Virus record (IMG/VR): IMGVR_UViG_3300000727_000007 | Span: 1 to 64,000 of that record | Length of the DNA: 64,000 nucleotides | Strand: one strand, 5' to 3' | Source of the DNA: a virus | Taxonomy: Duplodnaviria; Caudoviricetes | Shown here: positions 20,851-26,405 of the stretch, in pieces | Numbering within the stretch: position 1 is the first letter of the stretch | Layout of the letters: every line of letters begins with the position of its first letter | Notes under the pieces: generated by a model | The model's input: the letters and a program-made list of their open reading frames with translations, nothing else | Told to the model about the DNA's origin: nothing | The model's database searches: none | Position numbers and translations under genes: made by a program

Positions 20851-21603
20851 ATGACACAAGCAACATTTTTACAATATCAAGACGCAATGGAAAGAGTGTT
20901 GAGATATGACATTATTCACAATGGATTACCTAATTACGTAGAAGTCAATGGAGAAAAAATATCCAAAGCGGATTACATTGATGCAGTCAAGAGAGTACAA
21001 GCTTTCTTAGTTAAAGAGAAAGTAGACCCTAGATATGTTAATATGGGTGGTACAACATCGCCTGGTACAATAGTTCCAACTCCTATCCCTGTAACTAAAG
21101 GAGTCTATATTTGTCAAAGATATAGGCATAATATGGATCAGGGAACAGGTTATTGGTGCGCTCCTTTTACAGAAGCACAAATAATATATGAACTGTATGG
21201 GTTAGATGTAGCTCAAAGTTATTTAGCACAAGTTTCAGGAACCACAACTGATGGTACTGGACACCCAGGTATAATAAAAGGTTTAGAAACATGGGATGAT
21301 AAAGCAGGGCATGATGTTTCTGTGGATTTCCAGAACTTTAGTAGTACTGGATGGCAAAAATGCGCAGAAATGGTTGCAGACCCAAATATCGGTCTAGGAT
21401 TCCATGTTTTGTATAGAAACCACACAGGCTGGGGGCACTACATGTTTCCAGTGATTATAGACATGAACAAGAAACAAATAACTCTTATGGATAGTTTAAA
21501 TTCAACAGACATGATAACAGTGAGTTTTGCTGAATTTGAAAAATGGATTGCAAACACTCCATATAATCAACCATCATGTTTAATAGTCAAAAAAATAAAA
21601 TAA
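20851..21603 (+). CDS. pseudomurein endopeptidase (pseudomurein-binding repeats + C39-like cysteine peptidase; PeiR-like endolysin)
   Basis: Two PMBR-like repeats (YQDAMERV...LPNYV; YIDAVKRV...PRYV); DQGTGYWCAP, GHY, DSL catalytic motifs. Confidence 0.8.
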   Translation: MTQATFLQYQDAMERVLRYDIIHNGLPNYVEVNGEKISKADYIDAVKRVQAFLVKEKVDPRYVNMGGTTSPGTIVPTPIPVTKGVYICQRYRHNMDQGTGYWCAPFTEAQIIYELYGLDVAQSYLAQVSGTTTDGTGHPGIIKGLETWDDKAGHDVSVDFQNFSSTGWQKCAEMVADPNIGLGFHVLYRNHTGWGHYMFPVIIDMNKKQITLMDSLNSTDMITVSFAEFEKWIANTPYNQPSCLIVKKIK

Positions 21604-24305: not shown

Positions 24306-25088
24306 GTGATGAAAATGGATATGAAAGAAACAATAGTATTTGTAGGTAGATTAAAACAAGAAATACATGACAAAGAAGGGACTTTATTTAACGCCTATTT
24401 ATCAGGCTCTAAACTCTATGGATGGGATAGTTATAACTCCGATACAGATGTAAGAGGTATGTTTTCTCTGAATCCAAGGCGTTACTTAGGTTTAACTGTA
24501 CCAAAAGAAACCATACAACTACATCAAATAGGAGAAGAATATGACGTAGTTATGCATGAGTTAAGAAAGACAATAAACCTTGCATTAAAAGGGAACTGTA
24601 ACATACTTGAAGGTTTTAGCGCACCACAGATTTATAAAGACGCAAAATTCAAAGGGTTACAAAAACTTGTCCTCAATAGTTTTGGTAAAGATGGTTTATA
24701 CAACTCTTATAGAGGTATGGCTTGGCAGAATTATAAGAAATTTATCTTACAAGGAAGGAACACTGTTAAAAAATATCTGTACGTTTACAGAGGACTACTT
24801 GCAGGAAGGTATGTCTTAACCACTGGTAAGATAGAACCTAACATGGAAGTCCTCGCTAAGTATTTCCGCTGTGATAATGCGAAACATCTACTTAAAATAA
24901 AACGTGCAGGTTCTGAAAATGAACCTCTTAGCGAGTTAAAACAAGGAGATTTAGACTTAGAGATAAAAGAATTATTCGATAAAATCGATGATGCCTATGT
25001 TCTATCTGAATTACCAAGAAAACCAGAAGATGACGACGTAAAAGAAGTAGAAAACTATTTAATCAATTTAAGGTTAGAGGGCTTATAG
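24306..25088 (+). CDS. DNA-pol-beta-family nucleotidyltransferase (RlaP/YcgL-like, RNA-repair associated)
   Basis: SGSKLYG...SDTDVRG, HEL.K...LKGN.NILE, KKYLYVYR. Confidence 0.85.
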   Translation: MMKMDMKETIVFVGRLKQEIHDKEGTLFNAYLSGSKLYGWDSYNSDTDVRGMFSLNPRRYLGLTVPKETIQLHQIGEEYDVVMHELRKTINLALKGNCNILEGFSAPQIYKDAKFKGLQKLVLNSFGKDGLYNSYRGMAWQNYKKFILQGRNTVKKYLYVYRGLLAGRYVLTTGKIEPNMEVLAKYFRCDNAKHLLKIKRAGSENEPLSELKQGDLDLEIKELFDKIDDAYVLSELPRKPEDDDVKEVENYLINLRLEGL

Positions 25089-25173: not shown

Positions 25174-25255
25174 GGCCTCGTAGCATAGCTTGGATGTGCA
25201 CCGGACTTCTAATCCGGGACTTCGGTCAGCGCGGGTTCAAATCCCGTCGAGGTCA
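25174..25255 (+). tRNA. tRNA-Arg(TCT) with an atypical long variable arm
   Basis: ccgga-ctTCTaa-tccgg followed by gac-TTCG-gtc; A20 present. Confidence 0.85.
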
Positions 25256-25305
25256 CTTCATTCTTACAGTGTAAGAATAACTGGAGGTGGTTAACATGTC
25301 TCTCA

Positions 25306-25388
25306 GTTGGCGACCAGAGCCCAGAAACTCTGGAGTGGCTATTGTGGCGCTACTAATCAATTCGCAATGCGTTGATTAGCGAACCAAC
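25306..25388 (+). promoter_or_regulatory. putative structured leader RNA
   Basis: gttgg/ccaac closing stem enclosing ccagag/ctctgg and ctaatcaa/ttgattag hairpins. Confidence 0.4.
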
Positions 25389-25406
25389 AATAAAGGGCGT
25401 GATTTT

Positions 25407-25955
25407 ATTAAGCGATTATATTTGTTTGCGATCGTTTTAGTCGCATTACTGATTAGTCTGCCTTTATCTTCAGCTACTTCGGTAGGGGCGTATGACGTTA
25501 AAGTAACAAGTAGTTATGTATCCTCAATTGCAAAGTGCAGTTGTGGAATGGGAACGTACAGTTATCATAAAGCTACGTTCAAAAATTATTGTCCAAATTG
25601 CCATCGTTATGGCACTTTACATTATGAAGTGGGTCCAGCCTCATGGACTTCACCAGAAGGAATGTGGTATTGTTCCTGCTGTGACATGGATTTCTGTGCT
25701 CAGTGTGGAAAAAGCCACGACGGTAGAGGAGTATGGCTCGTAAGAACGACAATCCCTAAGCCATTACCAAAAGTTGTAGTAAACAACACCAATCAAACAA
25801 ACGTAACAAACGCAACAGCGAATACAACAGCTGTAAACAATTCAACTCCTCACGGAATAACTCATCCGTTTTTATCTCAAATGACACACGAGCAATTGGA
25901 TGCTTTGGGTGTGTTAGTTAAAAAATCTTGGATGGGCGAAAGATTTATATATTAG
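25407..25955 (+). CDS. secreted Cys-rich protein (probable ATT start at 25407)
   Basis: Signal peptide (KRLYLFAIVLVALLISLPLSSA), NYCPNC...EG.WYC..CD.DFC..CG domain, Asn/Thr linker. Confidence 0.75.
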   Translation: MKRLYLFAIVLVALLISLPLSSATSVGAYDVKVTSSYVSSIAKCSCGMGTYSYHKATFKNYCPNCHRYGTLHYEVGPASWTSPEGMWYCSCCDMDFCAQCGKSHDGRGVWLVRTTIPKPLPKVVVNNTNQTNVTNATANTTAVNNSTPHGITHPFLSQMTHEQLDALGVLVKKSWMGERFIY

Positions 25956-25958
25956 ATC

Positions 25959-26110
25959 AGACACATTAGGATACAGAAGCATAAAGGGCAACAAAGAGAC
26001 AAGAAATTATGTCCACAAGCAGGGTGAAATGCCTGGGTAACGAACGAAGGGCATAATAAATTGGCTCTGTCCTTATCTTCAAATCTTCACATAAATTCAA
26101 TAATGTGCCT
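25959..26110 (+). ncRNA. unknown rod-like structured RNA
   Basis: Nested stems acatta/taatgt, gaag/cttc, ataaagggc/gtccttat, attatgtcc/gggcataat; apical cagg-gtgaaatg-cctg. Confidence 0.5.
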
Positions 26111-26114
26111 CTAG

Positions 26115-26188
26115 ATAAGGCTGCGATAGAGAAGAGATACTTCGACGCTTAACCGAAAACCCAAACTCTTCTCAATTGTTCTCCTTAT
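26115..26188 (+). ncRNA. candidate Y RNA 1 (minimal)
   Basis: ataagg/ccttat and gagaagag/ctcttctc stems; conserved GGCTGCGATAG...TACTTCG; upstream of Ro60. Confidence 0.7.
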
Positions 26189-26196
26189 AACACTCA

Positions 26197-26372
26197 TGGG
26201 CGGTGGCTGAATGGAAAAGCGCCAGAAGAAACAGTCTTATTGATTGTTCTTCTCGTTATCTATTTCACTCATATTATTGCCTCTTTGGTAACGAGACTGT
26301 GTAGATAAGACATACTTCGTTCAAGGAGCTGGTCGTCAAGAGACGTGTGGTGGTTCGAATCCACCCCGCCCA
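26197..26372 (+). ncRNA. tRNA-Leu-like scaffold with a permuted Y-RNA stem in place of the anticodon loop
   Basis: tgggcgg/ccgccca acceptor, D arm, cgtc/gacg variable arm, ggtgg-TTCGAAT-ccacc; about 100-nt insert carrying both halves of the repeat in swapped order. Confidence 0.75.
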
Positions 26373-26405
26373 ATTGACCGTTCAAGTTTCGGTCGGTTCA
26401 CATGG

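Follow-up and report, generated by a model that had tools for sequence, protein, structure and literature searches.

The 64,000-nt stretch of DNA analyzed here (the window) comprises positions 1 to 64,000 of IMG/VR virus record IMGVR_UViG_3300000727_000007 (Caudoviricetes), a provirus record of 92 kb that is estimated to be 69% complete. All positions are given in window numbering. The window is densely coding and includes 25 standard tRNA genes located between 20.4 and 30.0 kb. Within this region, a spacer of 744 nt (25956-26699), whose longest open reading frame (ORF) spans no more than 44 amino acids, lies immediately 5' of a gene for Ro60. This spacer contains the subject of the current report, an element of 177 nt (U1) that has the ends and arms of a tRNA but carries a Ro-type stem in place of an anticodon loop. 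Overall, the virus has an island of 26 tRNA genes, when a spliced tRNA-Tyr is counted, together with genes for Ro60 and an RlaP-family nucleotidyltransferase.

The spacer also includes three direct copies of a stem motif of ~30 nt (repeat family D2). Each copy pairs with a partner strand downstream to yield a candidate Y RNA whose ends lie within that stem. These sibling candidates are called Ya, Yb, and Yc (Table 1), and U1 is flanked by Ya and Yb. The siblings share the stem motif but differ in their middles: Ya has a plain loop there, Yb has a T-arm-like hairpin, and Yc has ~100 nt with other structure. Thus, several topologies occur in one Ro60 locus. The 3' strand of Yc abuts the start codon of Ro60 at 26700. 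The protein encoded from this codon matches the Pfam model for TROVE (E 3.6e-30) and narrowly misses the cutoff for vWA_Ro60 (E 5.5e-06; 26.8 bits versus a cutoff of 27.7 bits). As is true for the genes of YrlA-type Y RNAs, U1 therefore has a TROVE/vWA ORF as a close neighbor, and this Ro60 is presumed to be its protein partner.

Table 1. Positions of U1, its parts, and its neighbors in the window, and occurrence of related elements in other Ro60 loci
Feature	Position or locus (elements)	Strand	Basis or description
U1, whole element; putative tRNA-shaped Y RNA gene, open-acceptor (unpermuted)	26197..26373	+	ARAGORN with introns allowed; covariance models R1, R2
Acceptor stem	26197-26203 with 26366-26372	+	7/7 Watson-Crick pairs
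U8/G9	26204-26205	+	Sequence
D arm	26206..26220	+	3-bp stem 26206-08 with 26218-20; 9-nt loop with GG
Anticodon-like stem	26221-26225 with 26329-26333	+	5 bp, one G-U; read from sequence
Insert replacing anticodon loop	26226..26328	+	103 nt; locus stem repeat in circularly permuted order
Ro module, circularly permuted	26234..26311	+	Motif common to Ya/Yb/Yc and Ro60 loci elsewhere
Ro helix H2	26234-41 with 26304-11	+	8/8 paired
Conserved internal loop of Ro module	26242-50 opposite 26297-303	+	Both strands, like H2, aligned by R2
Closing stem of Ro module	26251-60 with 26287-96	+	10 bp, 26-nt loop
Junction with UACUUCG	26313-26320 (within 26312..26328)	+	Invariant in alignment A1, nearly so in A5
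Small hairpin between UACUUCG and 3' strand of anticodon-like stem	26315-18 with 26325-28	+	4 bp, 6-nt loop
Long variable arm	26334..26345	+	4-bp stem, 4-nt loop; formed in minimum free energy fold
3-nt linker after variable arm	up to 26348	+	U48 can pair with A15
T arm	26349..26365	+	5 bp, perfect; loop UUCGAAU
Ya, sibling candidate Y RNA; simple stem-loop, ends in Ro stem	26117..26190	+	Repeat family D2; fold -19.2 kcal/mol, z -3.8
Yb, sibling candidate Y RNA; ends in Ro stem, internal T-arm-like hairpin	26411..26520	+	Repeat family D2 and fold
Yc, sibling candidate Y RNA	26542..26699	+	Weakest of three siblings, fold z -1.07
Ro60 gene, TROVE and vWA	26700..28289	+	327 nt downstream of U1, same strand
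RlaP-family nucleotidyltransferase gene	24306..25088	+	Pfam RlaP E 3.8e-37; co-oriented in same RNA island
Open-acceptor elements, viral contigs	L052, L053 (2), L054 (2), L055 (2), L056 (2), L067, L083, L089, L098 (2-3)		ARAGORN and wiring script
Open-acceptor elements, archaeal metagenome-assembled genome contigs	Methanocella L131 (2), Methanospirillum L132		ARAGORN and wiring script

The coordinates of U1 were compared letter by letter with the sequence. All the tRNA features listed in the original prediction (acceptor stem, A73, D arm, variable arm, and perfect T arm) are present, as is the proposed start at 26197. Two details required correction: the discriminator A73 is located at 26373, so the element ends there and not at 26372, and the anticodon-like stem has 5 bp rather than 4. 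A CCA sequence is not encoded. The bases that make tertiary contacts in tRNAs are all in place (U8, A14, G18G19, A15:U48, T54-C56, and A58), and the 5' half of the element resembles the tRNA-Leu(tag) of the window. The register of the D arm was taken from a family alignment (A1, described below), and the D/T-arm domain of U1 is aligned at high posterior probability by a covariance model built from relatives (R2, also below).

The anticodon loop has indeed been replaced by the insert that was proposed. The half of the insert that corresponds to the 3' strand of the stem repeat (26234-26250) comes first, and the half that corresponds to the 5' strand, including the motif and UACUUCG (26297-26320), comes second, with the predicted closing stem between them. 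Within this single acceptor-bounded unit, the 3' strand of the Ro helix precedes the 5' strand with which it pairs, and the closing stem-loop seals the end that is left open in the sibling RNAs. The small hairpin at 26315-26328 (Table 1) is an additional feature that the original prediction did not list. An architecture of this kind could be produced artificially by reading through two tandem Y RNA genes of the classical, permuted type, as does happen in L154, L210, L177, L149, and L084 (labels of this form denote the contigs or genome stretches compared). For U1, such an artifact is scarcely credible. Its acceptor strands are 162 nt apart and the flanks hold no partner for either strand, and thus the acceptor is not a closed hairpin of the YrlA type. 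Furthermore, U1 is neither preceded by a T arm nor followed by a D arm, and its two Ro strands, which a stem-loop connects, form a helix with one another.

The closest known RNAs are the YrlA RNAs (Rfam RF02553), which have been described from S. Typhimurium, M. smegmatis, and mycobacteriophages (Chen et al. 2014, PMC4201824) and for which a structure is available (PDB 6cu1; bioRxiv 10.1101/312249). The original prediction summarized this literature accurately. The 5' and 3' ends of YrlA are located in the Ro helix and the acceptor stem is closed, such that the RNA "lacks a free CCA end"; these tRNA-like Y RNAs have been likened to circularly permuted tRNAs, with a dimeric tRNA transcript as a possible origin (PMC4201824; bioRxiv 10.1101/312249). 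U1 shares with YrlA a gene location beside Ro60, a putative Ro-binding bulged helix in the position of the anticodon stem, and D and T arms that retain the tertiary-contact bases. The core of the 5' strand in most family members is GNCG(A/U)AG-like, as in YrlA, with UG for CG in U1, and the conserved UA that precedes the tRNA-like part of YrlA is taken to correspond to the UA in UACUUCG. The Ro module is homologous to YrlA-type RNAs, but the parts are joined differently. YrlA begins and ends in the Ro helix and has a loop-closed acceptor, whereas U1 has an open acceptor of 7 bp followed by A73 and has a loop-closed Ro helix. Judging from the sequence, U1 is the YrlA kit of parts (Ro bulged helix, UACUUCG junction, D/T elbow, and acceptor) opened at the acceptor and closed at the Ro helix, in which an anticodon-like stem and a class-II variable arm are kept along with an extra hairpin. 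We consider it likely that U1 is a Y RNA, a noncoding partner of Ro60, in which the wiring of YrlA is reversed and which is matured by the enzymes that process tRNA ends.

Several known RNAs provide partial parallels. The YrlA RNA of M. smegmatis alone among YrlA RNAs gains tRNA-like ends, through cleavage of its closed loop by RNase P (PMC4201824; bioRxiv 10.1101/312249). It is a tRNA-like Y RNA that is bound by Ro60 and that comes to have a CCA tail as well as a 5' end of the tRNA type, and therefore ends of this type are compatible with Ro60 ribonucleoproteins. However, its acceptor is opened by cutting a closed loop to give a molecule of two pieces, whereas U1 consists of one piece and is encoded open. 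Yrn1 of D. radiodurans likewise has tRNA-like features, in an orientation to the Ro helix that is unlike that of YrlA (PMC4201824), which indicates that the topology of the Y RNA family is not fixed. In Yrn1 the Ro helix replaces the acceptor stem and no complete D arm can be discerned, whereas the acceptor of U1 is complete and free. A more distant parallel is that a single structured, tRNA-related family can be encoded in two gene orders. Both one-piece and two-piece (circularly permuted) tmRNA genes exist, and permuted tRNA genes occur in Cyanidioschyzon and Thermofilum. The Thermofilum genes have been cited in connection with YrlA (bioRxiv 10.1101/312249). These are other RNAs with other functions, and processing of their permuted versions restores the standard molecule, whereas nothing suggests such processing for U1.

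The original proposal that U1 is the unpermuted counterpart of YrlA is supported by comparison with other Ro60 loci. A blind motif scan of IMG/VR yielded 43 stretches, and Ro60 adjoins the motif in nine of them, including the already known L001. The blind-scan loci were examined together with 80 Ro60 loci from viral contigs and 80 from genomes, and a script was used to tell the two wirings apart. In classical wiring, the order is Ro 5' strand, T arm, loop-closed acceptor hairpin, D arm, and Ro 3' strand. In open-acceptor wiring, the order is acceptor 5' strand, D arm, Ro 3' strand, closing loop, Ro 5' strand, T arm, and acceptor 3' strand. At least 18 elements with the U1 layout were found in 12 other Ro60 loci, which comprise nine IMG/VR contigs, contigs from Methanocella and Methanospirillum metagenome-assembled genomes (MAGs), and the cultured haloarchaeal virus HGTV-1 (Table 1). 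The closing loops in these relatives are often only 4 nt long, and thus the elements are not two adjacent genes read as one. Three metagenome candidates (L220, L224, and L236) were ambiguous or short and were excluded from the counts. Based on these sequence comparisons, U1 appears to belong to a conserved class of Ro60 partner RNAs. The Ro stem does reside in a tRNA body, but U1 is not the unique graft that was first suggested.

Conservation of the class is evident at the level of base pairing. A covariance model (R2) was built from 16 relatives in other loci, with the window excluded, and on the window it recovers 26197-26373 at full length (51.2 bits, E 2.6e-10, model positions 1-126), with an alignment that runs through the Ro module. 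The best of the real tRNAs in the window receives 36.4 bits from the same model, or 15 bits less than U1. A second model (R1) scores U1 at 88.5 bits. Two alignments were assessed for covariation, one with 11 elements (A1) and one with 16 elements that excludes the window (A5). In A1, 95.8% of cells are paired, compared to 39-46% when partners are slid, and 22 of 24 pairs show compensatory changes; in A5, the corresponding values are 95.3%, 41-48%, and 21 of 24. On four of five measures, none of 500 shuffles reached the observed value for either alignment, and on the fifth (the count of further pair types) the value was reached by 1 of 500 shuffles in A5. All seven acceptor pairs and all eight H2 pairs have changed on both sides across the family in both A1 and A5, and the D-stem and T-stem helices covary as well. 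Family invariants include U8, G10, A14, G18G19, and much of the T loop, as well as UACUUCG in A1, of which four of seven letters are invariant in A5.

Existing Rfam models divide the two wirings. RF02553 matches permuted relatives that carry the same motif in sister loci (L154, L084, L059, L074, and L210) with 36-50 bits, which is below the gathering score, and E values of 1e-8 to 3e-4. These matches support the idea of an unpermuted counterpart, as YrlA-type RNAs and open-acceptor RNAs share the motif. The same model yields no match to the open-acceptor elements on which it was tried (U1 and those of L053, L054, and L131) or to any part of 25200-26750 up to E = 10, and there is likewise no Y_RNA match for the window. 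The open-acceptor relatives of L053, L054, and L131 instead pass the Rfam tRNA model with a large insertion (40-51 bits). We found no description of an open-acceptor, tRNA-shaped Y RNA layout in the literature, and therefore this wiring is apparently new in print.

Phylogenetic placement of the proteins offers additional context. In a FastTree analysis of 94 Ro60 sequences, the window protein falls in a clade of 11 rows with 97% local (SH-like) support, together with L051-L056, L098, and three archaeal MAG contigs, and open-acceptor elements are present in nine of these 11 rows; the permuted label given to sampled Bacteroidota genomes in this tree was partly assumed. The nearest relatives of the window Ro60 are encoded by viral contigs, methanogen MAG contigs, and HGTV-1, and a metagenome scan with this protein revealed no relative closer than 43%. 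The possibility that the open-acceptor layout is confined to the archaeal Ro60 clade was rejected, since L067 and L089 fall outside of it. Downstream of Ro60 in L067 (4041-4269), 3 nt separate a classical-type unit, which has a closed acceptor hairpin with a UUCG loop and lacks a D arm, from the open-acceptor unit that comes next, and so the two wirings coexist in one locus.

Other observations from the comparison concern the details of the RNAs. Many relatives of both wirings (L053, L054, L052, L083, L098, L059, and L084) have a hairpin 3' of UACUUCG with a stem of 4-5 bp and usually a 7-nt loop that is mostly CUNNNRA, which resembles an anticodon arm with varying 'anticodons' and might be read as either an anticodon arm or a variable arm. 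A stem of 5-6 bp equivalent to the anticodon-like stem of U1 is present in L053 (2345-2468), L054 (1693-1817), and L055 (2262-2395). In four Bacteroidota loci (L154, L210, L177, and L149), classical YrlA-type units are repeated in tandem downstream of Ro60. These units are near-copies of each other, for which reason the open-acceptor model matches across unit boundaries, and the resulting false matches in these arrays and in L084 (40-68 bits, spanning two units; 180-200 nt long in Bacteroidota) were left out of the counts.

The class has a member in a cultured virus. Among isolated viruses, HGTV-1 (Halogranum tailed virus 1, NC_021328.1) has the best Ro60 match to the window, and its genome carries an element at 70440-70571 (L299 7-138) that R2 detects with 58.6 bits and E 5e-13. 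This element is located ~2.8 kb upstream of the TROVE gene and is annotated in the record as "tRNA-Asp (gtc) + Intron". Like U1, it has a 7-bp open acceptor, has the Ro motif and UACUUCG inside the supposed intron, and has TROVE and RlaP genes within 5 kb. Unlike U1, it is 132 nt long with a closing loop of 9 nt, lacks a separate anticodon-like stem, and has been published as a tRNA. A 2026 paper that counts the tRNAs of HGTV-1 states that one carries an intron (PMC13532342), which is probably this element. ARAGORN labels it Ser, and no bulge-helix-bulge (BHB) motif there gives a tRNA. The annotated tRNA-Asp is therefore likely to be a misannotated open-acceptor element resembling a Y RNA, to judge from its sequence.

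The annotation of HGTV-1 nonetheless favors an alternative, which is that U1 is a real, Leu-like tRNA gene with a long noncanonical intron whose excised piece, linear or circular, might itself act as a Y RNA. An ORF at 20851-21603 with a pseudomurein-binding repeat (Pfam PMBR E 1.4e-05) points to a host of the Methanobacteriales type. Together with the nearest cellular Ro60 proteins, which are encoded in Methanocella and Methanospirillum MAGs, this repeat suggests that the host is probably a pseudomurein-walled methanogen, and thus archaeal splicing had to be weighed. Archaeal introns at odd positions and circularized introns are known. Moreover, the tRNA-Tyr gene of the window has a canonical BHB intron, the genome lacks a tRNA-Leu(CAA) while the letters CAA occur in the loop of the small hairpin (26319-26324), and the Rfam tRNA model scores relatives over threshold.

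Despite these clues, an intron explanation is improbable. A scan that readily detects the canonical BHB of the tRNA-Tyr gene (outer helix of 6 bp, central helix of 4 bp, and inner helix of 8 bp) finds none in U1 or its relatives, even of relaxed form, that yields a tRNA, in agreement with the original contrast between these two genes. When the loop residues of U1 are read from the sequence, no combination of 5' and 3' positions provides the U33 of a standard 7-nt anticodon loop (U33 and purine 37). A total of 2,420 trial deletions produced as many as 67 distinct 'anticodons', and a 7-nt loop that includes U33 was not obtained consistently, although this test is uninformative by itself since ARAGORN accepts nearly anything that has the acceptor, D arm, and T arm of U1. 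Furthermore, no part of the family is better conserved than the supposed intron, in which the Ro motif lies, and the amino acid assignments disagree by tool: ARAGORN, with introns allowed, arbitrarily calls U1 "Val", and the HGTV-1 element is Asp in one case and Ser in the other. The insert of U1 is therefore not an ordinary intron, as it has no BHB and leaves no consistent anticodon arm after deletion.

Two intron-bearing genes of the tRNA-Tyr or tRNA-Tyr-like kind deserve mention in their own right. The tRNA-Tyr(GTA) gene of the window (29338-29511) is of the archaeal/eukaryal type with a short variable arm, and removal of its 102-nt intron (29374-29475) gives tRNA-Tyr(GTA). This intron-containing gene overlaps the ends of predicted ORFs 28970-29347 and 29465-29872. 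A tRNA-Tyr-like gene with a BHB-type intron is also present at L016 3696-3830, ~400 nt upstream of the open-acceptor element in that contig, where ARAGORN inconsistently assigns Thr to the spliced product. The presence of this intron suggests that L016 also comes from an archaeal virus.

A number of observations weigh against the assignment of U1 as a Y RNA with reversed wiring. The closest relative by Ro60 (L001/L051, 53% identity) has five Y-like RNAs and no open-acceptor element in the 11.5 kb available. The minimum free energy (MFE) fold of U1 includes neither the D arm nor H2. For this reason, the comparative, homology-based structure was used, which at -54.5 kcal/mol is near-optimal and lies ~5 kcal/mol above the MFE structure (-59.6 kcal/mol). 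The Ro motif of U1 is CUGUGUAGA (26297-26305), a related variant that lacks the CGAA-type core of the published Ro-binding consensus GNCGAAN0-1G. The same variant is seen again in relatives L001, L053, L098, and L132, whereas Ya, Yb, and Yc carry UGCGAUAG and other relatives carry UGCGAAG or UGCGUAG. U1 is also atypical in its 103-nt insert, extra hairpin, variable arm, and 26-nt closing loop, and it scores below the other members of the class. Finally, Rfam is silent on U1: the tRNA model does not report it at the gathering threshold, and the sole overlapping match up to E = 10 is a partial hit to tRNA-Sec of 19 bits.

Such peculiarities could mean that U1 is a dead tRNA gene that was broken by an inserted or duplicated copy of the local Y RNA repeat and has no function. 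In keeping with this notion, U1 is the longest and least typical element of the class, its motif deviates from those of its three neighbors, and its nearest relative has no such element. Its traits relative to other members include the retained anticodon-like stem, the extra hairpin, a class-II variable arm and A73 that are Leu-like, and the long closing stem-loop. However, six helices are intact, the acceptor is fully paired, and every tertiary-contact base has been kept. The architecture recurs with compensatory changes in 12 other loci. In addition, the insert is permuted in exactly the way that makes the Ro helix open toward the tRNA body, an outcome that random insertion would not produce. 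Decay of a tRNA gene is accordingly a very unlikely origin for U1.

A different concern is that the tRNA-like portion might have no function of its own and merely act as punctuation, recruiting RNase P and tRNase Z to a polycistronic transcript of Y RNAs and Ro60. Ya ends only 6 nt 5' of the U1 acceptor stem, so a cut at the 5' end of U1 would trim Ya too, and no TATA-like box fits between them. The elements of L053 and L054 abut the Ro60 gene, and MALAT1/mascRNA provides a precedent for 3'-end processing of the tRNA-like kind (cited in bioRxiv 10.1101/312249). On the other hand, a cleavage signal needs no Ro motif, and the Ro helix and loop are conserved and covary within the element. We view a pure processing signal as a rather poor candidate, but this role is compatible with a Y RNA function and could be a second role of the same RNA.

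If U1 is a Y RNA that is processed like a tRNA, then a plausible series of events can be proposed. U1 would be transcribed with its neighbors on the plus strand, probably jointly with Ya. The tRNA-like body would fold into an L shape, and host RNase P and tRNase Z would cut at 26197 and after A73, respectively. The CCA-adding enzyme might then complete the end, giving defined termini to U1 and its neighbors. The viral Ro60 ring would bind within 26234-26311, at the helix and its conserved internal loop. The tRNA-like half could serve as an effector module that either leads Ro60 to a partner that recognizes tRNAs or itself gates Ro60, perhaps as part of the tRNA supply and repair island of the virus. 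Discriminator bases and variable regions vary among family members, and therefore a single shared amino acid identity is unlikely; by this sequence measure, we do not expect common aminoacylation across the class. The original suggestions that U1 may be leucylated, may act as an aminoacylated Ro adaptor, or may represent a tRNA-to-Y-RNA intermediate are conjectural, and this particular copy might conceivably be charged.

The existence of open-acceptor RNAs has implications for two standing questions in the field, namely the origin of YrlA-type RNAs and the binding partner of their tRNA-like half. An open, one-piece form offers a simple origin, in which a tRNA acquires a Ro-binding anticodon arm. 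The published dimeric-tRNA model calls for tandem copies of this form, and such copies are seen in L053, L054, and L056. With open ends, the RNA would be expected to be matured by RNase P, tRNase Z, and the CCA enzyme, and aminoacylation becomes testable. An ambitious extension holds that the open-acceptor form is ancestral, that permuted YrlA RNAs arose from tandem copies, and that the RNAs of archaeal viruses are CCA-tailed and charged (Leu-like in U1), thereby tethering Ro60 to synthetases, EF1A, or the ribosome, or serving as decoys for host defenses that target tRNAs. We assign this scenario a small but real chance.

These findings also would extend candidate Y RNAs to archaeal viruses. 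TROVE proteins have been noted in the literature for Borgs, Asgard viruses, and HGTV-1 without partner RNAs. In addition, some viral "tRNA genes with introns" or "pseudo-tRNAs" might prove to be misannotated Y RNAs, and HGTV-1, with Halogranum roseipondis, provides a cultured virus-host pair for examining such cases.

The gene for RlaP, located 1.1 kb upstream of U1, is a candidate effector by inference. In HGTV-1, an RlaP gene (L299 5154-6035), detected by Pfam only, is found two genes past Ro60. RlaP was rejected as a fixed partner, because tblastn places it near Ro60 in only eight other loci, none of which has a counted open-acceptor element. Its association with Ro60 is best regarded as a lead. 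Searches of the 92-kb record uncovered neither RtcB nor a second U1-type element, and near and distant DNA similarity searches with the U1 region against a phage collection gave no match. Lastly, the 160-nt noncoding stretch 5' of Ya (25956-26116) lacks the stem motif, and a 17-nt segment at 26009-26025 is 88% complementary to 26599-26615 within Yc.

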